Source of the DNA: a virus
Lineage: Duplodnaviria > Caudoviricetes
Length of the DNA: 50,056 nucleotides
IMG/VR virus record: IMGVR_UViG_3300005526_000003
Coordinates: 1-50,056 of that record
Strand: one strand, 5' to 3'
Shown: piece after piece, positions 3,456-22,130 of the stretch
Layout: each line of letters starts with the position of its first letter
Position numbering within the stretch: position 1 is the first letter of the stretch
Position numbers and translations under genes: made by a program
Notes under the pieces: model-generated
Database searches by the model: none
Seen by the model: the letters and a program-made list of their open reading frames with translations, nothing else
Told to the model about the DNA's origin: nothing

Positions 3456-3498
3456 ATTATACGGGTATATAACACCATGTGTTATACGGTGGTATAAT
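3456..3498. promoter_or_regulatory. Symmetric divergent promoter/operator with palindrome ATAACA-N5-TGTTAT (copy 1, 3469-3485)
   Basis: TATAAT on + (3493-3498, TGn-extended) and on - (3461-3456), each 17 bp from a TAACAC half-site. Confidence 0.75.
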
Positions 3499-3637
3499 AC
3501 AGGTGCCGCAGTATCGCAAGGAGGATTGGGCGCGCGCGCGTGCGCAGCGGAATTTTCCCCCCTCCCCTTCGCTGGCGCAGCGGAACGCCCGGCGAGGCTG
3601 ATTGTCGCACCAGCGACGCAATCGAATCGCGGGCGCG

Positions 3638-3703
3638 TGTTGCGCTGCACCATGACCAGCCGCCGGTGTTGCACTGCACCATCAGCCACGTTGCGGTGCA
3701 GCA
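3638..3703. repeat. Three GTTGCRSTGCASCA boxes (3638-3652, 3667-3681, 3689-3703), PhaR-box-like
   Basis: tgttgcgctgcacca / tgttgcactgcacca / cgttgcggtgcagca. Confidence 0.6.
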
Positions 3704-3776
3704 CCTCATGCATGCGGCATGCCTGGCGCACCTCGCCAATTGTTACAACTGAAATAATCGGGATGCGCGAAACCCG

Positions 3777-3806
3777 TTGACGGCGAAGCCGCGCTCGTGG
3801 TAGGTT
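3777..3806 (+). promoter_or_regulatory. Early promoter for the 3855 gene
   Basis: TTGACG, 18-bp spacer, TAGGTT preceded by TG (extended -10). Confidence 0.5.
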
Positions 3807-3854
3807 TCACATCGACCCCGCCCAATTGCGGGCGGATTTCGGAGACTCGCTCAC

Positions 3855-4454
3855 ATGAACACTCAAACGACTCCCAAATTCCGCGAATCGTCCGTGACGG
3901 CTGTCACGCGCGACGCGGCTGGCATTACGGTTTGGTTCCGCGAAGTTCGCAAGCGTGCGGATGGCGAAGGGGTGGAAACGGTTCGCGTACTCGACCCCAT
4001 CACGCTGGCGTATTCCGACTGCTCCGAGGCCGTGCGCGCCGAGGCGCTCGGGTATGGGTTCGAGGTGCGGCTGACGCGGCAGGCCGCGATGGAGCGCGAC
4101 CCCCGCACGCACAAGCCCGTCTCGGTGGAGGTGAAGGCGGCGGCGGTTCGCGAGCTTCGCGACCATTACGCCTCCGGGACCGACTCTTGGACGTTGGCGG
4201 CTGGCGGCGGCGGGGGCGGTGGGCTGTCGGCTGAAACGAAGGCCCTCATTCAGGCCGTTCAACGGGTGTACGGGTTGGAGGCGGATGTGGCCGAGGAGGC
4301 CGTGCGCGCCATGTCGGGGCCGGAGCGGGATGCGCTGCGGGTGGACGCGGAGATCAAGGCCGTACTCGACACCATCTACGCGCAGCGCGCGGGCGCGGCT
4401 GACGCGGGGGCGCTCAAGGCGAAGCTCGCGGGCCTGGTCAAGAAGGCGGGCTGA
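3855..4454 (+). CDS. First early protein, unknown function; paralog of 10209..10850
   Basis: GGAG RBS, own promoter and terminator; aligns with the 10209 protein. Confidence 0.85.
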   Translation: MNTQTTPKFRESSVTAVTRDAAGITVWFREVRKRADGEGVETVRVLDPITLAYSDCSEAVRAEALGYGFEVRLTRQAAMERDPRTHKPVSVEVKAAAVRELRDHYASGTDSWTLAAGGGGGGGLSAETKALIQAVQRVYGLEADVAEEAVRAMSGPERDALRVDAEIKAVLDTIYAQRAGAADAGALKAKLAGLVKKAG

Positions 4455-4469
4455 ATCGGGGCGAATTGC

Positions 4470-4497
4470 GAGGGGGCTTCGGCCCCCTCTCTTTTTG
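4470..4497 (+). terminator. Rho-independent terminator
   Basis: gagggggc-TTCG-gccccctc followed by tctttttg. Confidence 0.9.
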
Positions 4498-4557
4498 TCC
4501 AGCTCTCTTGTAGTCCAGACGCCGACCCGCCACTCTGCTGGCGTGCTGGGGGTTGTA

Positions 4558-4817
4558 CAACAACAACAACAACAACCACCAAAACCAAGCACGAACCCCT
4601 CATTCCCCCCGGGCATAATCGCCCAGTCAGGGGTGTGCTCAGCTGAGCGGGGTATAGGGGCTTGATTCTCATTTTTTTTTCCTTCAAAAAGACATAACGC
4701 TCAGACGACATCCCTAGGCGGCTAAGACGACTGGGGAGGAGGCCAGCTGGGCGGGTTTCACCATGGGGAAAGGGAGGCAATCGTATTGGGTTTTGGTTGT
4801 TGTTGTTGCGGTTGTTG
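4558..4817. repeat. Large imperfect inverted repeat with (CAA)n/(TTG)n arms around a T9 tract; candidate replication origin
   Basis: 4558-4610 versus reverse complement of 4765-4817: about 40 of 53 match; inner pairs cgcccag/ctgggcg and ctgagcg/cgctcag. Confidence 0.75.
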
Positions 4818-4931
4818 CTCAAGCTCCACGGTCAGCACTCAATGTCCTCCCTTGCCAGCACCCCGCCGGTGTGCCACAATACCCGAGATCGGGACCCGAC
4901 GGCACCACACTTCCCCCGGAGGCAGGCGAAA

Positions 4932-5408
4932 ATGACCGGCAGTCGATTCGACAAGGGTAACACAGCGGCAGCTCGCCTCACCGCCGAGCACGTCTTCTCG
5001 ATTAGGGAGCGCTATGCGAACCGGCAGTCCACGCAGAGGCAGCTCGCCGCCGAGTTCGGTGTCACCATCACCACGATCAGCAATATCGTGCATGGACTGA
5101 CCTGGCAGCGCGTACCGCGTCCAGAGTCGCCCGAGGATGTTGAGCATCGCATTGCGGAGAGCCAACGCCGGTTGCAGGCGCTACTCCAGCACGACGCCGC
5201 GGATGAGGCGATTGAGAAGCAAATTCTCGACCTCACCGCGCCCAAACTCGCGGTGCAACCGCCCAGATCAATTTCAGAGAATGCGGCCGATCTGGCCAGC
5301 ATGGCAGAAGGCCTCCGCAAGCGGAAGGCCGATCTTGACTCGCAAGCAACTGAGGAGACTCGCGATGACCAATCCCACGATAATTCAGGCTCTCAACCAA
5401 CTGAGTGA
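4932..5408 (+). CDS. HTH DNA-binding protein
   Basis: ARLTAEHVFSIRERY…QRQLAAEFGVTITTISNIVHG; GGAGG upstream of ATG 4932. Confidence 0.75.
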   Translation: MTGSRFDKGNTAAARLTAEHVFSIRERYANRQSTQRQLAAEFGVTITTISNIVHGLTWQRVPRPESPEDVEHRIAESQRRLQALLQHDAADEAIEKQILDLTAPKLAVQPPRSISENAADLASMAEGLRKRKADLDSQATEETRDDQSHDNSGSQPTE

Positions 5409-5862
5409 AGAGCACGCCAGGCGGATGCGCCGCTGGCAGTTCACCATCAACATGCACCTCCCTCTCTTCGATATCCTCACGGATAAGGAGGTGGAGTTCG
5501 CCTTCGACACACACGATTCGGCGATAACTCTCCGAGTAGCGGGGGATGGGGAGCGATTCAAGACGATCTGGCGTACCCTCCGGCAGGCCGGCTGGCATCC
5601 TAACAATCACCCCAAGCCGGAGGCGGTTAGCTCGTTCTGCTGCTTCTGGAGCTATCCGAGGGAGGGGAAGGATCGCTGGGATCACGACGAGCGATTCGTC
5701 CAGCTCTGGTATACCTACTCTTCCACAGTCTGTAAGATGAAGAAGATAGGGACACGCCAGGTGACTCGGGAGGAGGACGTTTACGAAGTAGACTGTGGGC
5801 AAACGCCGCTCGGGGAGCTGCTCGCCAGCGAGAACGACAATCCGCAAGTTCGGGAGGGCTGA
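5365..5862 (+). CDS. Hypothetical protein
   Basis: GAGGAG RBS before ATG 5365. Confidence 0.7.
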   Translation: MTNPTIIQALNQLSEEHARRMRRWQFTINMHLPLFDILTDKEVEFAFDTHDSAITLRVAGDGERFKTIWRTLRQAGWHPNNHPKPEAVSSFCCFWSYPREGKDRWDHDERFVQLWYTYSSTVCKMKKIGTRQVTREEDVYEVDCGQTPLGELLASENDNPQVREG

Positions 5863-5865
5863 GTC

Positions 5866-6069
5866 ATGGAAGTTCCAGTAACACTGCTGGCCCAAGCTCT
5901 TCGAGAGGCTTGGGACAAGCAGGATGCTCGGGGGAACTACCCCGAGTGTCATGGTATTGTGCTAGCAGCTCAGTCCATAGCAGATGTGCTCAAGACAATC
6001 AACCCCAGCCTAGATCCTGAGACTTTCCTAAAGGATGCTGGAATGGGCCACTGGAGGAGGCAATCATGA
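5866..6069 (+). CDS. Small hypothetical protein (…INPSLDPETFLKDAG motif)
   Basis: GGAGG RBS; operon spacing. Confidence 0.65.
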   Translation: MEVPVTLLAQALREAWDKQDARGNYPECHGIVLAAQSIADVLKTINPSLDPETFLKDAGMGHWRRQS

Positions 6070-6323
6070 TTCTCTACTATCTGACCGACGACGAGGGGGA
6101 GCACATCATGACTGCTCCCCTCTCCACCATTGCTCATTTCTACCGACTCCACCCCGATGCGATTCGGCGGATTGAGAAGGAGACCGTTAGCCTCAAAGGC
6201 ATCTGTACTCTCTCCTTCGGCTCCCTCTACGAAGGAGCCCGAGTTTCGAGGGTGCACGTTCGCCGGCTGCCCGAGGAGATACCCTCCGCTCCCATTACTG
6301 TGACGATCCACGATAGGAGATAG
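6066..6323 (+). CDS. Hypothetical protein
   Basis: ATGA overlap; GGAGG RBS. Confidence 0.6.
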   Translation: MILYYLTDDEGEHIMTAPLSTIAHFYRLHPDAIRRIEKETVSLKGICTLSFGSLYEGARVSRVHVRRLPEEIPSAPITVTIHDRR

Positions 6324-6327
6324 GAAG

Positions 6328-6522
6328 ATGAAGACTCGCAAGACCATCTCCGCACTCGTCCGGCGCAACGCCGAGGCCTGTGCGAATGCCTGGAAGCCGC
6401 GCTGCACTTGCCAGTGCAAGCGGACCCTCCACCGAAAGCCCCACTCGGAGGAGTGGATGCAGGAGACCATTGAGCGGCTCGTCGCGGAGCACGAGGCCGA
6501 GACGGGGGAGGCACTCGAATGA
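6328..6522 (+). CDS. Small Cys/His protein, probably Zn-binding
   Basis: CANAWKPRCTCQCKRTLH. Confidence 0.6.
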   Translation: MKTRKTISALVRRNAEACANAWKPRCTCQCKRTLHRKPHSEEWMQETIERLVAEHEAETGEALE

Positions 6523-8015
6523 ATATCCTCACTCAAATAATCCCGGAGCCCTCCGGGGGCTCCGGCGCTCCGTCCCGGAGTTGGAAGGCCTCTCCCCTCC
6601 AAGAAGCAATCTTCTCCGCAGTTCGGGAGACTCTCGATCCTGTGATCGTGGAGGCAGTCGCCGGCGGGGCCAAGACCACTACCATCATAGCGGCAACCGA
6701 GTGGACGGCTGATCCCACTCTCTTCCTCGCCTTCAACAAGAGCATCGCGGAGGACATTCGGGGGAAGCTCAGGAAGGGAGAGGCCAAGACCCTCAATGCT
6801 CTCGGGCATCGGCTCTGGATGATTAATCAACCTCAGGCTCGGCTGGACGCCAGGAAGACCGAGAAGTTGATTGAGAAAGTCCTCCCCTCCGAGGATGTGA
6901 GGCGGAAGTTCGGCTACATCCTGGGGAGAGTAATCTCCACGGCCAAGGCTAACGGGCTTGGGATTGACTCCGAAGTAAATGCCAGCGACTTCGACCGCTT
7001 TATAACTAATGGGGAGTGGGATATCGATGACTCAGACATTATGGCTGCGGCACACTACGCCGCCCAAGTATTCAACTTCTCCCGTTCTGACGTGGCCACC
7101 TTTGACTTTGATGACCAGCTCTACGGGCCAGTCTATCACGGCTGGCACTTCCCAAGCTTCGGCACCGTTCTTCTGGACGAGGCGCAGGATCTCAACCGGA
7201 TTCAGCATCTCTTCGTCGAGCAGCTACTCAATCAAACGGCCAGGCTCATCGCAGTCGGGGACCGACACCAGGCCATCTATGCGTTCCGAGGGGCGCTCTT
7301 CAATAGTTTGGATCTGCTGAAGGAGCACTTCCGGATGAGGGAGATGCCCCTCTCGATCACCTACCGCTGTCCTCAGCGGGTGGTGACGCAGGCACAGCAG
7401 CTCGTCCCCCATATCCAGGCGAGGGAGGGAGCACCCGACGGTATGGTCCTTCATCAGTCCGACACCTCCGACGACGACCCCGAGGTCTTCTTCGGGGAGG
7501 ACCAGCTGGTCCTCTGCCGCAACAACGCTCCCCTCTTCGCCGCCGTCATGCGGCAGGTCCGAGCGAGGCAGCCATGCCGGGTGCTCAGCAACGCCCTCGA
7601 GGGGCTCGCCTCGTTCATCAAGCGATTCCGAACTCAGGATGTTCAGGCGCTCCTGATCCGGGTCGATCGCTGGTTGGATAAGGAGACCCTCGCCGCCGAG
7701 TCGAAGGGAATGCCCTGGAAGGTCGCTGCCCTAGCCGACAAGGCCGCAACTGTCCGCAGCCTGGCCGAGGGCTTCACCACTACGGATGAGGTGCTGAATG
7801 TCATACGACAGCTTGCAGAAGGAAGGACTGGTCCCTTGTTCAGCACAATACACAAAGCCAAGGGCCTTGAGGCTGACCACGTTTACTTTCTCCGGCCTGA
7901 CCTCGTGCCGGGCTGGTGGATTAAGGAGGAGGCCGCCCTTCAACAAGAATACAATCTTCGCTATGTTGCTATCACGCGTGCGAAGCAAACTCTCACGTAT
8001 GGAGTAAGGAAATAG
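6519..8015 (+). CDS. SF1 UvrD/Rep-like DNA helicase
   Basis: EAVAGGAKTT, LAFNK, LLDEAQD, VGDRHQAIYAFRG, TYRCP, STIHKAKGLE, YVAITRAK. Confidence 0.92.
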   Translation: MNILTQIIPEPSGGSGAPSRSWKASPLQEAIFSAVRETLDPVIVEAVAGGAKTTTIIAATEWTADPTLFLAFNKSIAEDIRGKLRKGEAKTLNALGHRLWMINQPQARLDARKTEKLIEKVLPSEDVRRKFGYILGRVISTAKANGLGIDSEVNASDFDRFITNGEWDIDDSDIMAAAHYAAQVFNFSRSDVATFDFDDQLYGPVYHGWHFPSFGTVLLDEAQDLNRIQHLFVEQLLNQTARLIAVGDRHQAIYAFRGALFNSLDLLKEHFRMREMPLSITYRCPQRVVTQAQQLVPHIQAREGAPDGMVLHQSDTSDDDPEVFFGEDQLVLCRNNAPLFAAVMRQVRARQPCRVLSNALEGLASFIKRFRTQDVQALLIRVDRWLDKETLAAESKGMPWKVAALADKAATVRSLAEGFTTTDEVLNVIRQLAEGRTGPLFSTIHKAKGLEADHVYFLRPDLVPGWWIKEEAALQQEYNLRYVAITRAKQTLTYGVRK

Positions 8016-8105
8016 ACAGGATCGATTGGATCTGGGAAGACCCGGAGGGGGACGACGACGAGTCCTCCCCCTTCGGCTTCAACGAAGACTTCGAATCGGA
8101 GGAGT

Positions 8106-8615
8106 ATGGGGATGACGAAGGATGAAGAGATCGCCCAACTGCGCCAGAAGATCGAGGTGTATGAGGCCGAGCACGCCGCCCTGTACAAAGCGCAGCAAGA
8201 GCAAACGGGCAGCCAATGGCCCCTGGCGTTGAAGGCACAGTGCGATTATTTCGCGGCAGAGTGCGAGCGGCTGACGCGCGAGCGGGACGGGCTGCGCATT
8301 CTCCTCAACAGTCCAGCCGCCGAGCGGCTCCAAGAGATCAAGCGGCTGCGCGCGGCGCTGGAGCGGATCATCGAGGTAGACGACTACAGTACGCACGCAC
8401 CCAACAGCATCAAGCTATTCAAGCAAATTGATGCTATCGCCCGCGAAGCCCTGCGACCCGCTGACGAGCTGGATACGACGCCAGAGCATCTTATGAAGCA
8501 GGGATACAGGTCAGGTCGAGCAGCGGACGAGACGACGGCTGTTCATCGGGTCCAGCCCGACGGTAGATGCTCTTGCGGCTATGACCCCAAGGTCCACTCA
8601 ATCCATGCCATGTGA
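8106..8615 (+). CDS. Coiled-coil hypothetical early protein
   Basis: GGAGG RBS; heptad-like segments. Confidence 0.65.
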   Translation: MGMTKDEEIAQLRQKIEVYEAEHAALYKAQQEQTGSQWPLALKAQCDYFAAECERLTRERDGLRILLNSPAAERLQEIKRLRAALERIIEVDDYSTHAPNSIKLFKQIDAIAREALRPADELDTTPEHLMKQGYRSGRAADETTAVHRVQPDGRCSCGYDPKVHSIHAM

Positions 8616-8824
8616 GAGCGAGTCAGATGCGCGATAGGATAATGGAGAAATTTGGAGCTTTCTGGCGCAAAAGCGGGCATAGATTCGGCTGCCTCGCGGA
8701 CGAGTTCAGAGAGAAGTCGCCGGAGGCCCATGCGAAGTTGCGCAGAAATATCATGTCGGCTGGCTATCGCGCTGGCTATGAAGCCGGAAAGCGAGCCACT
8801 GTGGGCAAGGCAGAAAGTCGATGA
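8612..8824 (+). CDS. Hypothetical protein
   Basis: GTGA/ATGA overlaps with both neighbours. Confidence 0.5.
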   Translation: MRASQMRDRIMEKFGAFWRKSGHRFGCLADEFREKSPEAHAKLRRNIMSAGYRAGYEAGKRATVGKAESR

Positions 8825-9015
8825 ACCGCCGCTCTTTCCTGAAATTCGCCGCCATTCTCACGGCGATCCCGGTTCAAGTGTTCGCTTGGGCGCGCGACCG
8901 CATCTGGTATCCGCGTAACGGACCGCAGTTGACTGAGGCACTGAGGAATGCGAGCGAGGGAGATATGATCGTTCTGGAGGCGGGGAAGACATATGACATG
9001 CACCACAGAATTTAG
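8821..9015 (+). CDS. Small protein with twin-arginine (Tat)-type signal
   Basis: MNRRSFLK, hydrophobic stretch, AWA. Confidence 0.65.
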   Translation: MNRRSFLKFAAILTAIPVQVFAWARDRIWYPRNGPQLTEALRNASEGDMIVLEAGKTYDMHHRI

Positions 9016-9178
9016 AGATGGTGGCTGGCGCATCATGGGCCACGGATTCTATGGGGACAAATGTACGTCTTGTGGACTGCCGACAGAGGATTTTGAATAC
9101 CTTACTAGGGACGTTCGCGTGTTTTGTGATGTGAATCTGACCACTGGTGAGGTGACATTCCCAGTGGACAAGGAATAG
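8993..9178 (+). CDS. Small CxxC hypothetical protein
   Basis: CTSCG; in operon; start uncertain. Confidence 0.45.
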   Translation: MTCTTEFRDGGWRIMGHGFYGDKCTSCGLPTEDFEYLTRDVRVFCDVNLTTGEVTFPVDKE

Positions 9179-9281
9179 AGTCATCGAACAGCGTTGTAGA
9201 GCGAGGTCAGGGAATGAGACTGGTCACCGCCGTTGTCTTCTAAAGACGGGGCATCGAGGCCCGCATATGAAAGACCTTAAA

Positions 9282-9374
9282 ATGATGCATCCGCTCTCGG
9301 TTTGGGCTATGGCCTTGGCGGTCGCCATTGCGCTGACTAGTTTATGTTTGTGGGTCTTGGGCTTGTTGGGCTAG
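9282..9374 (+). CDS. 30-aa transmembrane peptide
   Basis: MMHPLSVWAMALAVAIALTSLCLWVLGLLG*. Confidence 0.4.
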   Translation: MMHPLSVWAMALAVAIALTSLCLWVLGLLG

Positions 9375-9383
9375 GGAGCAAAA

Positions 9384-9644
9384 ATGAAATACCTACTGAT
9401 CTTCTGGACCGTAACTTCTTTGGGGTTTTTGGCTTCGCGCCTGATGTTGCGCAAGTACGATAGGGCTGCACTGCCAGCCGCATGGAGTCCCTCGACTCGA
9501 GGAGAACTCTTCATTCTGGCAGGCGTTATTTTCGTAGTCCTGCCGGGACTGCTGCTGGAAGTCCTCTATGAGACGCTGATGTTGCCCAAGCGCCGGCGAG
9601 AGGAAGAGCGCCGGTGGCAGATGAAATTAGACAAAGGTTGCTAA
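9384..9644 (+). CDS. Two-TM membrane protein
   Basis: GGGAG RBS; two hydrophobic segments. Confidence 0.65.
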   Translation: MKYLLIFWTVTSLGFLASRLMLRKYDRAALPAAWSPSTRGELFILAGVIFVVLPGLLLEVLYETLMLPKRRREEERRWQMKLDKGC

Positions 9645-9657
9645 AGGAGAAAGAAAG

Positions 9658-10161
9658 ATGGACACAATCCTAATCCAAGGTGGAGAGATGCAGCTGGTGA
9701 GCTGGGACCCTGGCTCTACCGGCGGCACCTACACAGTAGAAGGCATCAATATGATCCTAGGCGGGAAGTCCTGGGCATTCGAGCTGGACTCCTCTAGCTC
9801 TACCTGCCTCAGTATCCTCCCCGGTGGCCAGCCAGTGCCGACCGGCCCAGTCTCCCCCAACATCTGCCACGTCTCCGCCATAGATAGTGTCCGACCATAT
9901 GGCACTCCCTGCGATGGCTGCTTCAACATCAGCACCTACTCGAGCGGCCAGTACCAGCGGGACGGGGGCTTCTTCACCGGCACCCTCCTTCGAACCGAGT
10001 CCGTCCCCTACGCCGACCTGCCGAGTCTCCGTCTCGGCGCCACCAGTGTCTCAGAGCCGAGCCTCCTCGCCCTCGCCGCTGTGGCGGTTGTAATCAGCAC
10101 TTGCATGTCTTTGTTGACACGCGGGCGCGGGCGTGCCATGATCGTAGCGCATGTGGAATGA
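9658..10161 (+). CDS. Protein with PEP-CTERM-like C-terminal sorting signal
   Basis: AAGGAG RBS; ends VSEPSLLALAAVAVVISTCMSLLTRGRGR. Confidence 0.65.
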   Translation: MDTILIQGGEMQLVSWDPGSTGGTYTVEGINMILGGKSWAFELDSSSSTCLSILPGGQPVPTGPVSPNICHVSAIDSVRPYGTPCDGCFNISTYSSGQYQRDGGFFTGTLLRTESVPYADLPSLRLGATSVSEPSLLALAAVAVVISTCMSLLTRGRGRAMIVAHVE

Positions 10162-10208
10162 ACGGGGGCGCCACCCGACTAAAGGCCCCCGCAAACTAGG
10201 AGATAGAA

Positions 10209-10850
10209 ATGGCTGAGACAGAAGGCAACGGGGCAACCCCCGCCAAGGCAGAGAAGAAGAGGGAAGTCGAGAAGGTGAAGATGGAGGATGGACGCGAAGT
10301 GGAATTCGTTGGTAAGGCGAAATTCTACAAAGACGTGATCGTTGCAGGGCGGACGATTGATGAGCTGTCCCCAGAAGAGCTGGCCGCTGCGAACACCAGC
10401 GACGTCAGCATCCGACTCGATTTCCGCAACGGCACTACCCGCAACTACCCCCTGAACCCGGCGCTGGGCATTCAGTATGCCGGCCACGGCGGGAAGCAGA
10501 AGTACGGGGACGAGCTGGCTGGCGAGGATGCGCCAGATCTGGATGATTGGGCTGCGAAGACGGATCGTCTCCACGAACGTCTGACCAATGGGGAGTGGAC
10601 CCGGGAGCGGGCTGGTGGTAGCATGGCGGGGACTTCCGTTCTCCTCCAGGCTCTCATGGAATTCACTGGGCGCTCGGCCCAGGAAGTCCGCGACCACATC
10701 AAGGACTGGACGCCCCAGGACAAGCAGCAGCTCAGGATGGACCCTGAGATTAAGCCGATTGTCGAGCGGATCGAGCAGGAGAAAGCTGCGAAGGCCACCA
10801 AGGTCGATACTGGGGCGCTCAAGGCCTCCCTGCGGAGTCTGGCTGCCTGA
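10209..10850 (+). CDS. Early/middle protein, paralog of 3855..4454
   Basis: AGGAG RBS; homologous blocks shared with the 3855 protein. Confidence 0.85.
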   Translation: MAETEGNGATPAKAEKKREVEKVKMEDGREVEFVGKAKFYKDVIVAGRTIDELSPEELAAANTSDVSIRLDFRNGTTRNYPLNPALGIQYAGHGGKQKYGDELAGEDAPDLDDWAAKTDRLHERLTNGEWTRERAGGSMAGTSVLLQALMEFTGRSAQEVRDHIKDWTPQDKQQLRMDPEIKPIVERIEQEKAAKATKVDTGALKASLRSLAA

Positions 10851-11027
10851 TGAATAGCTCCGCCTGCGGCACTGCTGTATCCCGTTATGGCTTCGAGACC
10901 AGCAGTGGGTTTGGATCGGAGGGGGATAGGGTAATGCAGGTATCCCTCCCCACTTTCCCCGCCGCCTAGCCCCGCGGCAAAGAGGCAGCTCCCCTGCTGC
11001 CGAGTCCCCGAATGCGAGTCCGGGGGC

Positions 11028-11059
11028 GGAGAAGGCCACCGAGAGGTGGCCTTTTCTCC
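11028..11059 (+). terminator. Rho-independent terminator
   Basis: ggagaaggccacc-GAGA-ggtggccttttctcc. Confidence 0.8.
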
Positions 11060-11108
11060 TAGTGAGGATGCCGGATTATTCGGTGGTGGAAGCATGTAGA
11101 ATGCTCCA

Positions 11109-11144
11109 TTGACATTTACGCCCGGGTATAACACAATGTGTTAT
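11109..11144 (+). promoter_or_regulatory. Sigma70 promoter overlapped by palindrome copy 2 (11128-11144)
   Basis: TTGACA 11109-11114, 17-bp spacer, CACAAT 11132-11137, which lies inside ATAACA-CAATG-TGTTAT. Confidence 0.75.
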
Positions 11145-11176
11145 TCGATGGTAAAACCAAAACGAGGGGAAGCAGC

Positions 11177-11374
11177 ATGCCAATGAAGGGAATGTGTGCC
11201 GACTGCCGCCATTCAGGCGTCATTCACCAATTTGGGGCCAGTCAATTAGTCTGCCGGGAGAAGCCGCCCGTTATCCTCCCCCTTCCGAGTCCGCAGGGCG
11301 TCCAACTCACCTCCTGCTTCCCCGTCGTCGAGCGCACTTGGGTATGTGGGAAGTACGAGGGGGAGCTGCAGTGA
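11177..11374 (+). CDS. Small Cys-rich (Zn-binding) protein
   Basis: GAGGGG RBS; CADCRH…CREKPP…WVCGKY. Confidence 0.7.
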   Translation: MPMKGMCADCRHSGVIHQFGASQLVCREKPPVILPLPSPQGVQLTSCFPVVERTWVCGKYEGELQ

Positions 11375-11670
11375 GCGCCGATCGCCTCCAGATCATCCTC
11401 AAGCGCGCCCTTCATCGGGCTGCTCTCGCCAGGGAGGCGAAGAAGAAGCTCAAGGGGAAGATCCAGGCGGAGGCGATCGCGGAGGACTATGCGAATCGGC
11501 TCGCTGAGAAGCACCTCTACCGCCAGTTATTGTCCGACGAACGGATGGATGGGCTGCGATTCCGCTGGTTCTTCACCCGGATTCAGAAGGACACTTCGCT
11601 AGATGAGCTGAGACTTTGGATCGATCATAAGATTATAGAGGAAGACTCCCATGCTAAAGCTGCTCGATAG
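11371..11670 (+). CDS. Hypothetical protein
   Basis: GTGA overlap with upstream stop; GGGAG RBS. Confidence 0.6.
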   Translation: MSADRLQIILKRALHRAALAREAKKKLKGKIQAEAIAEDYANRLAEKHLYRQLLSDERMDGLRFRWFFTRIQKDTSLDELRLWIDHKIIEEDSHAKAAR

Positions 11671-11984
11671 GTTGCACCGGACGATAAATCGCTGGCGAAT
11701 ACGCCGCCATCTTGCTTGGCTGAAGAGGAGCCGGTACGTCTCCTCCTCCCCGAGTCACCTCTGCCAGCGGGGCAAGACTGAGTGTGCGGGGAAGGTATGA
11801 GACACCCCTCCCGCGTCGGCCTCTACAAGAGCCGCAAAGACCGACTGCGAAGCACATTACCCAAGCGGGCGGCAGTGCTCAGCTACGGGCACCGCAACTA
11901 TCAGACGAACGGAAACAGCGCCAGCAAGCTGAGAATCTGGCTACGCAAGCACCTGAGTAAAGTGCAATATGCGAGGTACTCATA

Positions 11985-12173
11985 GTGCCGCGCCCGCCTA
12001 ACATCATCCGCCCGATCCCGCTCCAGACCTCCCTCCCGGAGGATCTCCGCGCTCGGCTCGACCTTCACTTATGGTCCAACTCCGAGATGCGGGTGCCACT
12101 CGGGGCGTATCAGAAGCTAATCGTCCAACTACTTTCCGAGTACTTAGACAGAGTTGAGAGGCCCAAAGTATGA
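11985..12173 (+). CDS. Ribbon-helix-helix-like DNA-binding protein
   Basis: IPLQTSLPEDLRARLD…AYQKLIVQLLSEYL (strand-helix-helix pattern). Confidence 0.6.
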   Translation: MPRPPNIIRPIPLQTSLPEDLRARLDLHLWSNSEMRVPLGAYQKLIVQLLSEYLDRVERPKV

Positions 12174-12385
12174 TCCAATCTCCCGAAATCCAGGCCCGCA
12201 TCGCAAACTGGCGAGCGAAGCAGGCCGCCGGCACTATGACGCCAGAGGACTGGCAGCAGGCGATGGCTGACCTGCGGCAAGCCCGCACCGGCGCCCAGGC
12301 CGCACGCGCCAGCAAGGCCACCGTGAAGAAGGTGGTGGACACCCAGGCACTCAAGGATTCCCTCCGCTCGCTCGCGAAGAAATAG
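12170..12385 (+). CDS. 71-aa protein carrying the shared C-terminal tail
   Basis: Ends VDTQALKDSLRSLAKK; ATGA overlap. Confidence 0.75.
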   Translation: MIQSPEIQARIANWRAKQAAGTMTPEDWQQAMADLRQARTGAQAARASKATVKKVVDTQALKDSLRSLAKK

Positions 12386-12393
12386 GAAGAAGA

Positions 12394-12576
12394 ATGGACC
12401 GTTACATCGCCATTTATCAGGTGAATTGCGCAGTGTGCGAGCACACGCCGGTCGTTGGACTGCGTACTCCGTCAGGACAGATCGCCAGCACCGGCCTCTG
12501 CGGTTCCCATTTCTGGGGCGACCGCTCCATGCTCGACCCGGAGGACTGGAATAAGCCCCAAGATCCAACTGAATAG
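12394..12576 (+). CDS. Small Zn-finger-like protein
   Basis: CAVC…LCGSH; AGGA RBS. Confidence 0.65.
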   Translation: MDRYIAIYQVNCAVCEHTPVVGLRTPSGQIASTGLCGSHFWGDRSMLDPEDWNKPQDPTE

Positions 12577-12586
12577 GTAGATTCCC

Positions 12587-13498
12587 ATGAAAGACTCGCA
12601 ACTCTCCTTCCCCGAAGTCATCGACTCTTCGATGCTCGCGGCCTTCAAGGCCTGTCCTCAGTTATTCTTCAAAACCTACATCGCCCAGTGGAAGTCCAAG
12701 ACCGAGAAGGTCGACCTCCACGCGGGCAAGGCATTCGCCCACGCTCTCGAAAAGGCCCGCCGGGGGTTCTTCGAGGATGGGCTGAATGCTGAGGTCGCCG
12801 AAGCTCGTGGCCTCGAGGCCTTCTTCGACGCCTACGGAGATTTCGAATGCCCGCCCGACAACCCCAAGTCTCGGGAGAGGATGGCAGGAGCCTATGGGTT
12901 CTACATGGACCACTACCCCCTCACCATGAACTCAGGCTTCCCCATCCTCCTCCCGGGAGGTAAGCGAGCCATAGAGGTGAGCTTCGCCCAGCCTCTCGCC
13001 ATCGATCACCCGGAGACTGGCCACCCCATTATCGTCTGCGGCCGGGGAGACATGATCTGCCAGTACGCCGGGGCGAACTATGGAGAAGACGACAAGACCA
13101 CCAAATCGCTCGGCCCCACCTGGTCGCAGCAGTGGGACCTCCGCGCCCAGTTCATCTGCTATACCTGGGGGTTCCGGCAGATGGGGTTCGATATCGCCGG
13201 CTTCCTCGTCCGGGGAGTTAGCATTCTCAAGAGGAGCTACGACACCCAGGAAGCCATCTGTAACTTCTCCCCCTGGGAGGTGGACCGCTGGTATGGGGAG
13301 ACTCTCGAGTGGGTGGGGGATATGATCCGGGCCTGGAAGACTAATCGCTGGCGATACAACCTCGACCACTCTTGCACGAATTACGGCGGCTGCGGATTCC
13401 GCACCGTGTGCAAGGCGCAGGATGAGACGCCTTGGCTCGAGCAGTACTTTGAGAGGCGCCGGTGGGACCCAGTTACCCGCTTGGAGACTAAGCTATGA
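12587..13498 (+). CDS. Cas4-like PD-(D/E)XK exonuclease
   Basis: SSMLAAFKACP, GRGD…EDDKTT, C-terminal CTNYGGCGFRTVC (four-Cys Fe-S pattern). Confidence 0.85.
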   Translation: MKDSQLSFPEVIDSSMLAAFKACPQLFFKTYIAQWKSKTEKVDLHAGKAFAHALEKARRGFFEDGLNAEVAEARGLEAFFDAYGDFECPPDNPKSRERMAGAYGFYMDHYPLTMNSGFPILLPGGKRAIEVSFAQPLAIDHPETGHPIIVCGRGDMICQYAGANYGEDDKTTKSLGPTWSQQWDLRAQFICYTWGFRQMGFDIAGFLVRGVSILKRSYDTQEAICNFSPWEVDRWYGETLEWVGDMIRAWKTNRWRYNLDHSCTNYGGCGFRTVCKAQDETPWLEQYFERRRWDPVTRLETKL

Positions 13499-13587
13499 TT
13501 GAAGAAACAATGGCTTACATCTTCGTCGGCGTTGGCCTAGTCATCCTTGGAGGCGCCGTGATAATCTGGCTCTGGAGGCGGATGTGA
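13495..13587 (+). CDS. 30-aa membrane peptide
   Basis: MIEETMAYIFVGVGLVILGGAVIIWLWRRM*; ATGA and GTGA overlaps on both sides. Confidence 0.55.
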   Translation: MIEETMAYIFVGVGLVILGGAVIIWLWRRM

Positions 13588-14306
13588 TTCAACTGCTGGA
13601 GATCGACACCTCCTGCTGGGAGATCGAGCGCCCCACCCACTACCACGGTTGGCGCGTCTACAGCCAGGCCTTCGTCTGCCCAACCTGCCTCCACATCTGG
13701 GCGAAGATTGGGCCTCCTCCCTATCAAGTGATCGGAACCGCCTGCGAGCACCATCCCTCGCACAATTACTACATCTGCCCCATCCCCGGCAGTATCCTCG
13801 ACAACATTACCTTCTCCGACGGGCCGGACTTCGATCTCCTAGATGCCCTCCCCGTCGAGCTGAAGCAGAGAGAATTCGACCTTCACGTGAAAGCATTGGA
13901 GTTAGAGCATGGCGACAATTACCACCTTACCTCCTACGGCCTCCGTCCCGACGGTAGCCTCGGCTCCCTCCCTCCTACCGGGGGTGAACGTCCTCCTCGA
14001 GGGTCCGACCGGCACGGGCAAGACCTACTCGATCGGAACCCTGATCGACGCGGGAGTGGAGGTATTCTATCTCGGATTGGAGAATGGGTTCGAGACTCTG
14101 ATCGGCTACTACACGGATCGGGGGAAGCCAGTCCCGGAGAACCTGCACTGGCACACCCTCCAGATCGCCATGCCGGGGGGCTTCGCAGCGATGGCGGACG
14201 GGGCGCAGATGATAGGGCAGATGAACTACGAGTCCCTCACCAAGATGCAGGACTTCACCCGAGCGCAGAACAACCAGTTCGAGAAGATCCTCCGAGTGAT
14301 GAATGA
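13584..14306 (+). CDS. Zn-binding hypothetical protein (globular part ~13584-13910)
   Basis: CPTC…CEHH…PGSI; the C-terminal half overlaps the ATPase gene out of frame. Confidence 0.5.
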   Translation: MIQLLEIDTSCWEIERPTHYHGWRVYSQAFVCPTCLHIWAKIGPPPYQVIGTACEHHPSHNYYICPIPGSILDNITFSDGPDFDLLDALPVELKQREFDLHVKALELEHGDNYHLTSYGLRPDGSLGSLPPTGGERPPRGSDRHGQDLLDRNPDRRGSGGILSRIGEWVRDSDRLLHGSGEASPGEPALAHPPDRHAGGLRSDGGRGADDRADELRVPHQDAGLHPSAEQPVREDPPSDE

Positions 14307-14811
14307 CTTCTACGACCAGCGCACCGGGAAGAAGTTCGGAGGGGTTGACTCCTGGGGTCCCGACCGAGCCATCGTGATTGATGGTCTGACAGGCCTGGGC
14401 GCCTTCGCAATGGCGATGGTTATAGGTAAGAAACCCACCAAGAGCCGACCTGATTGGGGTATCGCTCAGGACTCGGTAGAGAGGTTCCTGCGCTACACCT
14501 GCGATGGCTGCAAGTGTCATTTCGTCCTGATCGCCCACGTGGAGAGAGAGCAGGACCTCGTGATGGGAGGTACGAAGATCACGGTCTCCTCCCTCGGCCA
14601 GGCCCTTCCTCCCAAGATTCCCCCCATGTTTTCCGATGTTATCCTCTGTATTCGACAGGGAACCAAGTGGACTTGGAGCACAGCCAACAACCTGTGCGAC
14701 CTCAAGACCCGTTCCCTCCCAGTCGCCGACGATATCCCCCAGAATTTCTCCCAGATTGTCGAGAAGTGGAAATCTAGAGGCGGACGCTTCTCGAGCCTCG
14801 TAAAGGTATAA
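13909..14811 (+). CDS. AAA/Sak4-like ATPase (recombination/replication)
   Basis: GPTGTGKT, IVIDGLT, LIAH; lies between the nuclease and the SSB-like gene. Confidence 0.85.
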   Translation: MATITTLPPTASVPTVASAPSLLPGVNVLLEGPTGTGKTYSIGTLIDAGVEVFYLGLENGFETLIGYYTDRGKPVPENLHWHTLQIAMPGGFAAMADGAQMIGQMNYESLTKMQDFTRAQNNQFEKILRVMNDFYDQRTGKKFGGVDSWGPDRAIVIDGLTGLGAFAMAMVIGKKPTKSRPDWGIAQDSVERFLRYTCDGCKCHFVLIAHVEREQDLVMGGTKITVSSLGQALPPKIPPMFSDVILCIRQGTKWTWSTANNLCDLKTRSLPVADDIPQNFSQIVEKWKSRGGRFSSLVKV

Positions 14812-14837
14812 CCCGCCTCTTCCTTAGGAGAATCCAG

Positions 14838-15320
14838 ATGAACGATGTCACTAGTGGCTTTGACCCTGCCAGCTTCCTCGGTGCAACCCTGACCGATGCC
14901 AACACCCGGCGTCCCCCGATCCCGGGCGGCCTGAGCTTCCCCGGCACCCTCGGTGTCCCCACCTCTCGCCAGAGCGAGGGGAAGAAGGAATCGAATCTCG
15001 GGCAGCTCTACACCTGGGTAGATATCCCGGTCGAAATCGACCTGACCTCCAACCCCCAGGTTCGGGAGCAGGTGGGTGCGGATAAGGTGAGCCTACGGTA
15101 TTCCTTCAGCCTCCAGCTGACTCCCTCGGGCGGTCTAGACATGTCGCCGGGGAAGAACAATGGGCTGCGAGTTCTGCGCGAGGCGGTGAACATGAACACC
15201 CCTGGTCAGGCCTTCCAGATCCAGGCCGTCGCCGGTCGCCAAGTCCTCTGCCGCATCGGTAACCGTCCCTATCAGGGGGAGGTGTACGACGAAATCGACT
15301 CGATCGCCCGGCTGGGCTAG
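14838..15320 (+). CDS. Putative ssDNA-binding protein
   Basis: Follows the Sak4-like ATPase; beta-rich, …GKNNGLRVLREA…YQGEVYDEI; AGGAG RBS. Confidence 0.55.
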   Translation: MNDVTSGFDPASFLGATLTDANTRRPPIPGGLSFPGTLGVPTSRQSEGKKESNLGQLYTWVDIPVEIDLTSNPQVREQVGADKVSLRYSFSLQLTPSGGLDMSPGKNNGLRVLREAVNMNTPGQAFQIQAVAGRQVLCRIGNRPYQGEVYDEIDSIARLG

Positions 15321-15329
15321 GAGATCCGA

Positions 15330-15557
15330 ATGGCAACACAAGAATGGCTGAGCCATCAAACCGAACTTCTCGGTTACCTAGCAGGCTGCCGGGAGGACCT
15401 GACCTCTATCTCAGAGGGGGCGGACCTCGACCACATAGCGGAGTCGATCCAAGAACTCCAATCCGCCATCGAGGCCTCCAACGAGGAGAAGATGGGGGAG
15501 GACGAGGACGAGGAAGATGAGGAGGAAGAAGAGGAGGAAGACGACGAAGACGAGTAG
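15330..15557 (+). CDS. Very acidic small protein
   Basis: Ends EDEDEEDEEEEEEEDDEDE; AGGAG RBS. Confidence 0.7.
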   Translation: MATQEWLSHQTELLGYLAGCREDLTSISEGADLDHIAESIQELQSAIEASNEEKMGEDEDEEDEEEEEEEDDEDE

Positions 15558-15572
15558 TTAATCCACCACTCC

Positions 15573-15604
15573 GAAGGGGGGCGCCCGCGGCTCCCCTTCC
15601 TTTC
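15573..15604 (+). terminator. Probable rho-independent terminator
   Basis: gaaggggggc…gctccccttc followed by ctttc. Confidence 0.6.
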
Positions 15605-15627
15605 TGCATTAGATGAGGGGCTTAGAC

Positions 15628-16950
15628 ATGCAGTTACACGTTATCCCCGCTGACGACATTGTAGTAAAAACCAACCGTCAGCGACGCGAACTCGACCAAT
15701 CTAAATTGCTGGAGCTAGCAGGCTCCATCGCCCAGAATGGGCTGATACACCCTCTCGTAGTCCGGCTGGCGGACGACGAATACACCCTAGTCGCCGGTGA
15801 GCGCCGGCTCAAAGCTCTCGAACACTTGTGGTTCTTGGGCCAGGAGGTCACCTGCGGTGAACGAATTATTCCTGAAGGACACGCTCCGTGTCTCTTCCTC
15901 GGGGACATTGACCCTGTGGACGCGGAAGAAATTGAACTTGAAGAAAATATACGTCGCGAGGATCTCAGCTGGAAAGAACGGGCGGACGCTGTTTCGCGAC
16001 TTGCAGATCTACGAACCCGCCAGGCTGCCGCCAATGGCAAATCCGCGCCCTCGGCGGAAGCCATCGCGGAAGAGGTCGCCGGCGACGGTAAAGGCCAGAC
16101 CATCACTAACATCCGCCAGGATATCATCCTCGGGCGCGCCCTCTCCAACCCCAAAACAGCAGAGGTGATAAAGAATGCAACCTCCCGCCAAGAAGCCTTC
16201 AAGCTCCTCAAGCGACATGAAGAATCAGAGCGACACGCCGCCCTCGGCGCTGCCCTCGGCCCGACATTCTCCTCATCTCTGCACGTTCTGCAGAGAGAGG
16301 ACTGCTTGCGTGCTATGCCTGAGCTGCCAGCGGCGTCTTTCGACGTTATTCTCACTGACCCGCCATACGGGATCGGTGCGGACGACTTCAAGGATTCGGG
16401 CGGGAAAGCTTCAGGTGGTCATTTCTACGACGATTCCTACGAGTCTTGGGCTAAACTCATACCACCTTTCGCAAGCCATTCATTCCGCCTTGCGAAAAGC
16501 GAGGCGCACCTCTACGCCTTCTGTGATGTTGAGAGGTTTGCGGAACTCAAGCAGCACCTTGCTGCGGCTGGGTGGAAAGTATTTAGAACTCCCCTCATTT
16601 GGTATAACCCAGGAGCTGTTCGAGCGCCCTGGCCCGAGCACGGACCGCAGCGGAAATGGCAAATGATCCTCTACGCGATGAAGGGAAGCAGGAATGTTAC
16701 TCGGCTTTACGGAGACGTCCTCACTTATCCCTCAGACCCTAACCTTGGCCACCCCGCCCAGAAGCCTGTTGACCTGTACTGCGATCTTCTGCGACGCTCT
16801 ATCCGACCAGGAGATGCAGTACTTGATCCTTTTGCTGGAAGTGGAACTATCTTCCCGGCAGCGCATGCGCTCAAGTGCCGGGCGACAGGGATTGAGGCAG
16901 ACGAAGCGGCGTACGGGGTCGCGGCGAAACGGCTCAAGGAGCTAGTATGA
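15628..16950 (+). CDS. ParB-N domain fused to N6A/N4C DNA methyltransferase (beta class)
   Basis: SIAQNGLIHP…VAGERRLKA; TDPPY, HPAQKP, VLDPFAGSGT. Confidence 0.9.
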   Translation: MQLHVIPADDIVVKTNRQRRELDQSKLLELAGSIAQNGLIHPLVVRLADDEYTLVAGERRLKALEHLWFLGQEVTCGERIIPEGHAPCLFLGDIDPVDAEEIELEENIRREDLSWKERADAVSRLADLRTRQAAANGKSAPSAEAIAEEVAGDGKGQTITNIRQDIILGRALSNPKTAEVIKNATSRQEAFKLLKRHEESERHAALGAALGPTFSSSLHVLQREDCLRAMPELPAASFDVILTDPPYGIGADDFKDSGGKASGGHFYDDSYESWAKLIPPFASHSFRLAKSEAHLYAFCDVERFAELKQHLAAAGWKVFRTPLIWYNPGAVRAPWPEHGPQRKWQMILYAMKGSRNVTRLYGDVLTYPSDPNLGHPAQKPVDLYCDLLRRSIRPGDAVLDPFAGSGTIFPAAHALKCRATGIEADEAAYGVAAKRLKELV

Positions 16951-21227: not shown

Positions 21228-21239
21228 TGTTATCCGGGT
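21211..21239. promoter_or_regulatory. Palindrome copy 3 (21217-21233) in an extended hairpin where the two arms converge
   Basis: gcccga-ATAACA-CATGA-TGTTAT-ccgggt; contains the TGA of the last + gene. Confidence 0.7.
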
Positions 21240-21242
21240 GTA

Positions 21243-21425: not shown

Positions 21426-21437
21426 CGTAATCCTACA

Positions 21438-22128: not shown

Positions 22129-22130
22129 AA

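Follow-up and report, generated by a model that had tools for sequence, protein, structure and literature searches.

Three early phage proteins share a C-terminal tail that changes in concert within genomes and is a probable docking element

Why should three early proteins of one phage, two of them paralogs, end in the same short tail? The question is raised by an uncultured soil phage, the complete genome of which (50,056 bp) is the window analyzed here. The three genes, called B (P1), A (P2) and C (P3) in the following, are located in the early/replication arm, away from the virion genes, and the open reading frames as well as their endings have been confirmed as given in an initial annotation made from the DNA letters (Table 1). 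The trio is widespread. Among 80 related loci, homologs have been found for A in all 80, for B in 58 and for C in 54, and an HMM scan of these loci together with the window has returned two family members in 56, one in 21 and three tail matches in 4. All three genes are kept throughout a large group of phages that are known from uncultured genomes of 40-50 kb and appear to be lytic; they also occur in the cultured Microcystis phage Mel-JY34, whose host is a bloom-forming cyanobacterium and whose proteins end in ALLAKFA, ELLEMFK and QVLDLFK. The A family amounts to 2,335 representative clusters at 50% identity, and 363 proteins have been found with the C profile. The initial annotation recognized no family, and indeed A, B and C match none in Pfam, PHROGs, NCBIfam or the PDB: no Pfam entry exceeds its cut-off (the best being DUF2442 for A, E 0.066, and Styelin for C, E 0.0013 and 19.5 bits versus a cut-off of 27), no PHROG falls below E 0.05, and NCBIfam has given no meaningful match. 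One C homolog, among the 120 matches listed, bears an automatic JGI label of the "ribosomal stalk" type.

Table 1. Positions of the three genes, their tails and loops, and nearby transcription signals in the window
Feature	Position	Strand	Basis or remark
Promoter-like site upstream of B	3469..3498	+	consensus match only; overlaps palindrome TAACAC-N3-GTGTTA (3470-3484)
B (P1), 199 aa	3855..4454	+	ORF; opens rightward early transcription unit; paralog of P2
B loop D164-A165-E166, homologous to A loop 178-180	4344..4352	+	charge-flip scan, alignment; basic in most lineages
B tail, last 18 residues, includes GALKAKLAGL	4398..4451	+	
Intrinsic-terminator-like hairpin and T-run 3' of B	4470..4498 (hairpin 4470-4489)	+	fold z -4.15, 0/200 shuffles
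Promoter-like site upstream of A, TTGACA-17-CATGAT	10114..10142	+	consensus match only
A (P2), 213 aa	10209..10850	+	ORF; best conserved of the trio
A loop D178-P179-E180	10740..10748	+	charge anti-correlated with tail charge
A tail, residues 199-213, VDTGALKASLRSLAA	10803..10847	+	
Terminator-like hairpin 3' of A	11028..11058 (approx.)	+	fold z -3.97, 0/200 shuffles
C (P3), 71 aa	12170..12385	+	ORF
C tail, last 16 residues, VDTQALKDSLRSLAKK	12335..12382	+	

The paralogy of A and B, proposed in the initial annotation, holds. BLASTP aligns the two proteins over 103 aa with 31% identity (E 1e-9), with the motif pairs singled out earlier inside the alignment, and profile-profile comparison of the two families by hhalign extends over 153 columns with a probability of 99.8% (E 1.1e-28). 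The terminators described downstream of both paralogs have likewise been recovered as terminator-like hairpins, the one behind B being strong and followed by a T-run, and of the two hairpins that had been described just before the ribosome-binding sites, that of B has found partial support (z -2.5; 5/200 shuffles as good) and that of A is at chance level (z -0.31; 67/200). The relation of C to the paralogs is of a different kind. C aligns with A by BLASTP over 66 aa (E 9e-6) and gives no BLASTP alignment with B, and hhalign of C against the A family is restricted to 18 tail columns (probability 38%, E 3.4e-4). At the profile level C does not look like a shortened A/B protein, as the similarity is confined to the tail and the body is not detectably related to A; the 66-aa span of the BLASTP alignment leaves room for a distant common descent.

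A is composed of an N-terminal domain with beta strands and a long helix hairpin, which a Gly-rich linker connects to a C-terminal domain that is small and helical and carries the terminal tail. C begins with about 35 aa whose pattern is conserved and looks helical; an Ala/Ser/Lys/Arg-rich linker of variable length and the tail follow. Two models predicted for A/B reach pLDDT values of 90.3 and 95.7, and in the predicted A structure the tail is a confident helix (201-212; pLDDT blocks of 83-91) which belongs to the C-terminal domain. The Foldseek search suggested in the initial annotation has returned nothing at E ≤ 0.001 from the PDB, a wider structure search with the A/B models has reached best Z values of 5.1-5.5 for the helix hairpin only, and profile and structure searches have detected no match of A/B to an OB-fold or SSB family.

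The ends of A, B and C share the motif [VI]-D-[TS]-x-x-L-[LK]-x-x-L, and most lineages have an acidic, hydrophobic version of it. When a loose regular expression of the tail was required to match within the last 22 residues of an open reading frame, exactly A, B and C were obtained from the 397 frames of at least 40 aa on both strands of the window. In the 80 related loci plus the window, 176 of 5,616 closed frames on the gene strand matched versus 18 of 5,612 on the opposite strand. The motif is also carried by bodies with no detectable relationship: besides C, these are a SprT-like HExxH protein (L014; PF10263 with E 6.4e-5, under the gathering score) and a Cys-rich protein (L073). Between 9 and 65 further residues follow the motif in 18/86 A and 16/49 B proteins, so that a free C-terminus or carboxylate is unneeded. 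This observation bears on the idea that the tail serves in sorting or turnover, be it as a C-terminal degron, as a membrane-targeting amphipathic helix, or as a tag by which the protein is loaded into a particle or compartment. Such a signal would be in line with the ending L-A-A, seen in A of the window and in many of its close relatives, and with the basic, amphipathic tails of the window's clade. However, neither LAA nor a basic tail is seen outside this one clade, the majority of tails being acidic, B and C of the window end without LAA, and the genes do not lie among those of the virion, so that we regard this explanation as very improbable.

A common constraint on the three tails is evident from their concerted change. 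The initial annotation had expected the tails to co-vary within genomes, and they do. For a set of 107 sources, reduced to 86 once those more than 90% identical had been removed, genome labels were shuffled 5,000 times, a procedure which preserves column make-up but not phylogeny and speaks to concerted change and not to the number of independent events: tail identity within genomes has been found to be 0.590 for A-B (0.485 shuffled), 0.540 for A-C (0.445) and 0.546 for B-C (0.422), in each case with 0/5,000 shuffles as high. When the window's clade is left out, the corresponding shuffle counts are 0, 12 and 0 of 5,000. The lineage variants can be read directly from the endings, e.g., LLAGLGEIPG, LLAGLGAIPG and LLAGLGQLPL across the trio in one lineage (L137), LAKL, LAKF and LAKF in another (L135-136), ALLADF common to A and B in L064, and a final Ile in all three proteins of L049. 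In the window's clade the tails of A, B and C have all turned from acidic (DxLLxEL) to basic and amphipathic (ALKxSLRSL).

One may ask whether such similarity requires a partner at all. The tail could be nothing more than the inherited last structural helix of the A/B domain and C a remnant copy, with the tails kept alike by occasional gene conversion, recombination between paralogs or shared composition. The paralogy of A and B is genuine and spans the 153 columns, the tail is predicted with confidence as part of their C-terminal domain and co-varies with a loop in the same chain, the BLASTP alignment of C and A covers 66 aa, and the non-tail columns of A and B show a small within-genome excess as well (0.361 versus 0.337). 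Against this, the excess identity between A and B peaks sharply at the tail, which ranks top among 125 sliding windows of 11 columns (0.093; median 0.020) and is followed by a second peak in the loop region. The tail of C tracks those of A and B, yet its body is unaligned to A at the profile level, and unrelated bodies carry the tail too. The tails of A and C in the window differ by many synonymous substitutions, such as AGT versus TCG for Ser, which argues against recent gene conversion in this genome, and the joint change of tail charge in one clade is not easily accommodated either. An origin without a shared partner is therefore considered improbable, and the tail is probably a shared protein-protein docking element. 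Of the initial proposal of a short linear motif with one common partner, the motif under common constraint thus stands; no result singles out host RNA polymerase, the polymerase or helicase of the phage, or any protease as that partner.

Where, then, might such a tail dock? A hint comes from the loop that lies before the helix preceding the tail in A and B. In the window's clade this loop has turned from basic to acidic in A (178/180) and in B (166), opposite to the tail; in the charge-flip scan, position 166 of B is K or R in 42/52 other loci and D or E in the window's clade. Across 317 A sequences, loop charge and tail charge are anti-correlated (r = -0.545; 0/5,000 shuffles), and the correlation persists without the K-type tails (n = 279, r = -0.336; 0/5,000 shuffles), while in the 59 loci used for the comparison across proteins, with the window's clade left out, it amounts to r = +0.26. 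The top mutual-information pairs that involve the tail (167-205, 180-209, 164-205 and 178-205) all fall within the C-terminal domain and hold ranks 33-80 when every pair separated by 6 or more residues is considered, a signal which stems partly from the contrast of the window's clade with all other lineages. Exceptions to the rule exist (L050 and P0093 combine E at 180 with an acidic tail), and charge compensation across proteins, e.g., of the A loop with B or C tails, depends on the one clade (r -0.17 to -0.06 without it). As tail charge and loop charge change together within one protein, the receptor may sit in the paralogs rather than in a third protein, a placement that appears quite possible, if somewhat short of probable.

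Nearly as likely is a third-party partner, on which A, B, C and the occasional other tails would all dock, the seating of the A and B tails on their own C-terminal domain then being a resting, self-inhibited state. Intramolecular docking fits this possibility equally well, as in proteins with a self-inhibitory tail, and the same can be said of the co-variation within genomes. Known phage systems (T4, T7) operate in this way, and the tails are mostly acidic and hydrophobic and extend to the SprT-like protease. Candidates lie near the trio in the same genome: a family A polymerase that also contains a UDG-superfamily domain as a fusion (17466-19997; DNA_pol_A, E 1.6e-26), a DUF3987 primase-helicase, a Sak4-like AAA_24 ATPase and a PD-(D/E)XK nuclease; a host hub, e.g., a sliding clamp, could also serve. 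However, no sliding-clamp family has been detected among the ~45 ORFs of the window that were compared with Pfam, PHROGs or both. Because the tail charge is reversed in the window's clade, any partner would have to follow, and among the conserved phage proteins within 10 kb no complementary charge change specific to this clade has been seen except in A and B, the polymerase and the primase-helicase being covered by the locus flanks in 16/80 and 4/80 loci, respectively. Complementary charge changes do occur in the nuclease, a helix-turn-helix protein at 2757 and a ParB-methylase, but they are not specific to genomes with basic tails. A highly conserved host hub would need to bind a tail of charge -3 as well as one of +2, and is an unlikely acceptor.

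We tentatively favor the reading in which the tail acts as a docking helix tuned in each lineage and the C-terminal domain of A/B is its receptor, A and B being hubs and C a client or competitor. A and B would be produced from separate transcription units, each with its own promoter-like site and terminator. In both, the predicted tail helix follows the last helix of the C-terminal domain via a short linker and would pack on the domain beside the loop 178-180 (A) or 164-166 (B), so that the site may be filled by the protein's own tail or by one swapped between molecules. Owing to the short linker, fold-back within one molecule suffices for A and B. As hubs, A and B may associate with themselves and with each other, and tails on long flexible linkers, i.e., that of C and in some relatives that of the SprT-like metalloprotease or the Cys-rich protein, may plug into the A/B site as clients or competitors. 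A further extension, which we consider unlikely but worth stating, would see in A/B a very large phage-only hub family that holds both docking helix and receptor site, with the lineage versions as a private address code that gathers, at a single place early in infection, a changing set of tail-tagged clients (among them the small basic C, the SprT-like protease and the Cys-rich protein); drift of the code up to charge reversal would prevent cross-talk among co-infecting relatives. The naturally acidic and basic tails are ready-made specificity variants, and the hypothesis is therefore directly testable by swaps of tails and loops. If A/B indeed hold both tail and receptor, they would form a self-contained recruitment code for which the literature searched offers no phage precedent.

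The closest parallels are found in phages T4 and T7. The T4 account describes C-terminal epitopes of gp43, gp55 and gp33 that all bind the clamp gp45 as a hub and are interchangeable, the gp55 epitope being separated from the rest of the protein by a linker that is divergent and varies in length (PMC2988020). Similarly, several proteins of one phage carry here a near-identical hydrophobic, mostly acidic C-terminal motif, with a variable linker in C. In contrast to T4, no clamp gene has been recognized among the window ORFs scanned, the motif is a predicted helix of another pattern, the carriers include a pair of paralogs, tail and loop co-vary within one protein, and one clade is basic. The T7 tails are disordered acidic runs with a terminal aromatic residue, and that of gp2.5 reportedly binds gp5 in competition with gp4 for the same surface. 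For gp4 itself, the acidic C-terminal tails are described as binding to gp5, a family A polymerase, at basic patches (PMC12593628). The present genome resembles this arrangement in that its replication module includes a family A polymerase and more than one protein has an acidic tail in most lineages, but the present motif is a Leu-rich, amphipathic predicted helix, not always terminal and basic in the window's clade. The C-terminal tip of bacterial SSB is an acidic/hydrophobic peptide of an abundant DNA-metabolism protein, which serves to recruit numerous partners and is able to fold back onto the body. For A/B, the searches have returned no match to an OB-fold or SSB family and the motif needs no free C-terminus, and the roles would be reversed if A/B are the receptor. 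In the ribosomal stalk, large and small proteins of one complex (P0/P1/P2) share a C-terminal peptide on Ala/Lys-rich flexible hinges. C resembles them in its small N-terminal body, Ala/Ser/Lys-rich hinge and tail, but occurs in a phage early-gene context, and no homology is claimed. Shared C-terminal docking tails organize the best-studied phage replisomes and late-transcription machines, those of T4 and T7, and a similar principle is probably at work here in families that are unnamed in the databases, of which A and C are abundant in environmental phages.

The endings that the initial annotation had ascribed to three early proteins of the window (P1, P2 and P3, Table) have been found in their open reading frames (ORFs), and a loose form of the common C-terminal helix motif (the tail, [VI]-D-[TS]-x-x-L-[LK]-x-x-L), when sought in the last 22 residues, has singled out these three alone among the 397 ORFs in the window. 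The observation of a common tail is solid. P1 and P2 are full paralogs as proposed, with a BLASTP alignment over 103 aa (E 1e-9) and a profile-profile alignment of their families over 153 columns (E 1.1e-28) that begins at the beta strands of the N-terminal domain, which together indicate paralogy over nearly the whole length. P3 aligns with P2 by BLASTP (E 9e-6, 66 aa) and gives no BLASTP alignment with P1, and the profile-profile alignment of the P3 and P2 families is limited to 18 tail columns. Terminator-like hairpins stand downstream of P1 (z -4.15) and P2 (z -3.97) as expected, whereas, of the hairpins claimed before the RBS of both genes, that of P1 scores modestly (z -2.5) and that of P2 no better than chance (z -0.31). 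P2 and P1, whose families are hereafter called A and B (with C for that of P3), each have a promoter-like site in front and a terminator-like hairpin behind, an arrangement that, judged from the sequence, would suit abundant proteins.

The P2 homologs carry no informative names. They number 786 at E <= 0.01 in a clustered protein collection, many on 40-51 kb contigs, and the P2 profile has matched 2,335 clusters at E <= 0.001 (1,055 at E <= 1e-10) among 1.84 billion representatives. In a viral contig collection P2 relatives are encoded on 198 stretches, from which the best 80 and then 27 more non-redundant ones have been analysed as loci (L-numbers). When all ORFs of the 80 loci and the window were scanned by HMM, 56 sources proved to have two family members, 4 to have three tail hits and 21 to have one, contig ends having truncated many of the last group. 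The window proteins have homologs in 80/80 (A), 58/80 (B) and 54/80 (C) loci. Among 50,697 deposited phage records only 2 include the family, one from an uncultured 'Bacteriophage sp.' and the other from Microcystis phage Mel-JY34; prokaryote genomes (one each of 185,579 species) have yielded only 6 loci, which all sit on short or metagenome-assembled contigs and therefore give no host assignment, a sparseness that fits rarely cultured lytic phages. Mel-JY34 (PP438425.1; L083 and L150) encodes A, B and C, annotated as hypothetical throughout, with a Phe common to the tails at the last motif position. A literature search on this cultured phage has returned nothing, and the phage offers the one laboratory system in which the docking idea could be tested.

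C is a family in its own right, as its profile has retrieved 363 proteins of about 65-90 aa in which a conserved N-terminal segment of ~35 residues is followed by a variable-length linker rich in Ala, Ser, Lys and Arg and then by the tail. The consensus tail is identical across the A, B and C classes ([VI]-[DN]-[TS]-D-[AD]-L-L-x-E-L), is also carried by other bodies (Table) and need not be terminal, with 9 to 65 residues beyond the motif in 18/86 A and 16/49 B proteins. In B of L054, L065, L066-L070, L076, L131, L133 and L114 an extension of 30-65 residues past the tail has at its end another conserved basic motif, T-[SR]-K-K-[KR]-L, which may be a further docking peptide. Upstream of P3 lies a 62-aa gene with a ribbon-helix-helix-like pattern by eye, whose stop overlaps the P3 start; it has no Pfam match and has homologs in 72/80 loci, and it has been rejected as a fixed companion of C, which it adjoins in just 7 of 44 loci having both.

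The tails have been compared within and between genomes, anchored on the conserved Asp, after redundancy removal at 90% identity over the C-terminal part of A (81 to 64 sources; 107 to 86 in the larger set), leaving out the spurious C candidates of L047, L079 and L081 and proteins without a residue at the anchor column. The core idea of the initial annotation, a common docking-like tail, has withstood this comparison, the very test that the annotation had set for it: the tails co-vary, with an identity within genomes of 0.590 vs 0.485 shuffled for A-B (n = 49), 0.540 vs 0.445 for A-C (n = 40) and 0.546 vs 0.422 for B-C (n = 22), each at 0/5,000 shuffles. Without the window's clade, the lineage with basic tails formed by the window and L003-L008, the counts are 0 (A-B), 12 (A-C) and 0 (B-C) of 5,000; as the shuffles ignore phylogeny, these values demonstrate concerted change and not the number of events. 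Private tail variants common to members of a trio have been seen in many separate lineages, e.g., in L137 (LLAGLGEIPG, LLAGLGAIPG, LLAGLGQLPL), L135/L136 (LAKL, LAKF, LAKF), L064 (ALLADF in A and B), L049 (last residue Ile in A, B and C), L146 (KF in A and B) and Mel-JY34 (ALLAKFA, ELLEMFK, QVLDLFK). Along the A/B alignment the within-genome excess identity peaks at the tail (0.093 vs a median of 0.020 over 125 alignment windows), and its second-highest peak is the region around a loop (residues 178-180 of A, homologous to 164-166 of B) that precedes the last helix before the tail. A purely structural helix with no common partner is a poor fit both to C and to this sharp peak at the tail, and we regard it as improbable. 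The tails of A and C in the window differ at many synonymous sites, including Ser codons AGT vs TCG, and recent gene conversion is therefore not the source of their identity.

In the window's clade the tails of A, B and C all read ALK-x-S-L-[RK]-x-L, whereas nearly all others read D-x-LL-x-E-L, so that a tail charge near -3 has become one near +2 in the three families. A role of the tail as degron or membrane signal fits one clade only and is very unlikely. A scan of eleven conserved protein families for an opposite change of charge has pointed to A residues 178 and 180 within the loop (NSPKIKP to MDPEIKP) and to the homologous B residue 166, and also to single or paired positions of the PD-(D/E)XK nuclease, the 2757 HTH protein and the ParB-methylase. 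The latter three have been discarded because their changes are common to acidic-tail genomes: the nuclease, considered as receptor since Arg 241 and Arg 245, four residues apart, are acidic or neutral in the window's clade, has the same replacements in the acidic-tail L009, L010, L011, L013, L014, L020 and L027, and the changes in the 2757 HTH protein and the methylase, which occur in acidic-tail genomes too, are non-specific.

Over 317 A sequences the charges of loop and tail are anti-correlated (r = -0.545), as they are for the 279 that remain without basic K-type tails (r = -0.336; 0/5,000 shuffles in both cases). The mean tail charge is -1.98 where residue 180 is basic, -1.21 where it is neutral and +1.08 where it is acidic, and mutual information with average-product correction has given residues 164, 167, 178 and 180 as the strongest tail partners. 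Compensation between proteins (e.g., of the A loop with B or C tails) is due to the window's clade alone. For P0098 and P0043, two A sequences of independent basic-tail lineages, searches of the viral collection have yielded no close relatives; the independent A lineages with neutral or basic tails include the P0065, P0098, P0131, P0248 and P0249 types. The AlphaFold model of A (pLDDT 90.3; pTM 0.56) shows a helix at 182-195, five residues and then the tail helix at 201-212, and an antiparallel hairpin would place residue 209 beside 180, in line with the charge coupling.

The N-terminal domain of A, modelled alone (pLDDT 95.7), combines five strands with a long helical hairpin and bears a set of charged residues that never vary (D, R, K, H-G-x-x-Q-K-x-G-D). 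The fold search that had been suggested for the paralogs has proved uninformative for models of full A and of this domain against PDB (Foldseek), in the wide VIA search and in BFVD: Foldseek has given nothing at E <= 0.001 in PDB for the domain, whose best match in the wide search (Z 5.5) is restricted to the helix hairpin, and BFVD holds unnamed relatives only. Likewise, the ESM Atlas search has matched unnamed viral clusters only, the sole PDB sequence-profile match of A is to 30 residues of a designed toroid protein, and Pfam, PHROG, NCBIfam and PDB sequences hold no match that accounts for P1, P2 or P3. The H-G-x-x-Q-K-x-x-D motif, otherwise kept in A and B, is missing from B of the window and of L004; in these genomes B may be degenerate, have no catalytic role or serve regulation alone.

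The window is one whole virus record, 50,056 bp long and bounded by direct terminal repeats, and a soil and a mine metagenome are the only datasets listed as containing its DNA, with no RNA dataset alongside. Early and replication genes form a rightward arm (about 3,500-22,800), the large terminase, portal and other virion genes a leftward arm, and an Rfam scan of the window has returned no family. The palindrome TAACAC-N3-GTGTTA has 4 matches at <=1 mismatch vs 0.02 expected; its exact copies, one in the early divergent region and one at the P3-containing operon, overlap the promoter-like sites there, and it looks like an operator common to two promoters. No copy is present at the promoter-like site of P2. 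A 475-nt non-coding stretch 3' of the P1 terminator contains an imperfect inverted repeat of 64 nt, with 73% complementarity, 154 nt between its arms, cores of (CAA)n and (TTG)n, and no Rfam match. The Sak4-like ATPase is followed by a 160-aa protein of no family, kept in 48/80 loci, with a weak match to DUF669 in 1/36 members (E 0.0063) and an empty PDB sequence-profile search; by its position it may be a single-strand-binding partner of the ATPase. Beyond it, a 75-aa protein ends in a run of ~25 Asp/Glu and has homologs in only 3 loci, all of the clade whose tails became basic.

Table. Coordinates of tail carriers, neighbouring genes and sequence elements
Feature	Source	Coordinates	Remarks
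P1 (family B)	window	3855-4454	199 aa
P2 (family A)	window	10209-10850	213 aa
P3 (family C)	window	12170-12385	71 aa
A	Mel-JY34	912-1490	
B	Mel-JY34	42758-43270	
C	Mel-JY34	7773-7967	
B lacking the H-G-x-x-Q-K-x-x-D motif	L004	3156-3752	
Tail on other body	L014	6109-6618	169-aa HExxH protein; SprT-like match sub-threshold
Tail on other body	L073	10868-11257	129-aa Cys-rich protein
Tail on other body	L011	12164-12661	165-aa protein, no family
HTH protein	window		rightward arm
UvrD-like helicase	window	6519-8015	rightward arm
Ribbon-helix-helix-like gene	window	11985-12173	
PD-(D/E)XK nuclease	window	12587-13498	rightward arm
Sak4-like AAA_24 ATPase	window	13909-14811	rightward arm
160-aa protein	window	14838-15320	
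75-aa protein	window	15330-15557	
ParB-methylase	window	15613-16950	rightward arm
UDG-superfamily domain fused N-terminally to family A DNA polymerase	window	17466-19997	UDG E 2.9e-26; DNA_pol_A E 1.6e-26
DUF3987 protein	window	19998-21227	rightward arm
TAACAC-N3-GTGTTA	window	3470-3484; 11129-11143	exact
TAACAC-N3-GTGTTA	window	21218-21232; 36211-36225	near matches
64-nt inverted repeat	window	4547-4610; 4765-4828	

Two readings of the tail fit these data nearly equally. Tentatively, we prefer the one in which A/B itself, through its C-terminal domain, provides the receptor, a reading that would explain why tail and loop are the two concertedly evolving segments of A/B, why no other conserved neighbour has a matching change and why the tail occurs on unrelated bodies. 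A and B would then self-associate and associate with each other via tail and C-terminal domain, and the tail-only proteins, C foremost, would dock on A/B or compete with the A/B tails. Somewhat less probably, all tails bind one other protein, and the contact within A/B is a resting state. A complex prediction of A and B with C as partner has given no answer (score 0.00) and weighs for neither reading.

In the literature searched and in four family libraries, the A, B and C families, the motif and its predicted helical form appear undescribed; so do the carriers' own site that is coupled to the tail and the way in which the tail has been retuned from lineage to lineage, even to the opposite charge. 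That several proteins of a phage may have a C-terminal docking tail in common is already known in principle, and the reading with one other protein as partner is analogous to T4 and T7. T4 gp43, gp55 and gp33 have interchangeable hydrophobic and acidic C-termini in common for the clamp (PMC2988020), and in T7 the acidic tails of gp4 contact the family A polymerase at basic patches (PMC12593628).
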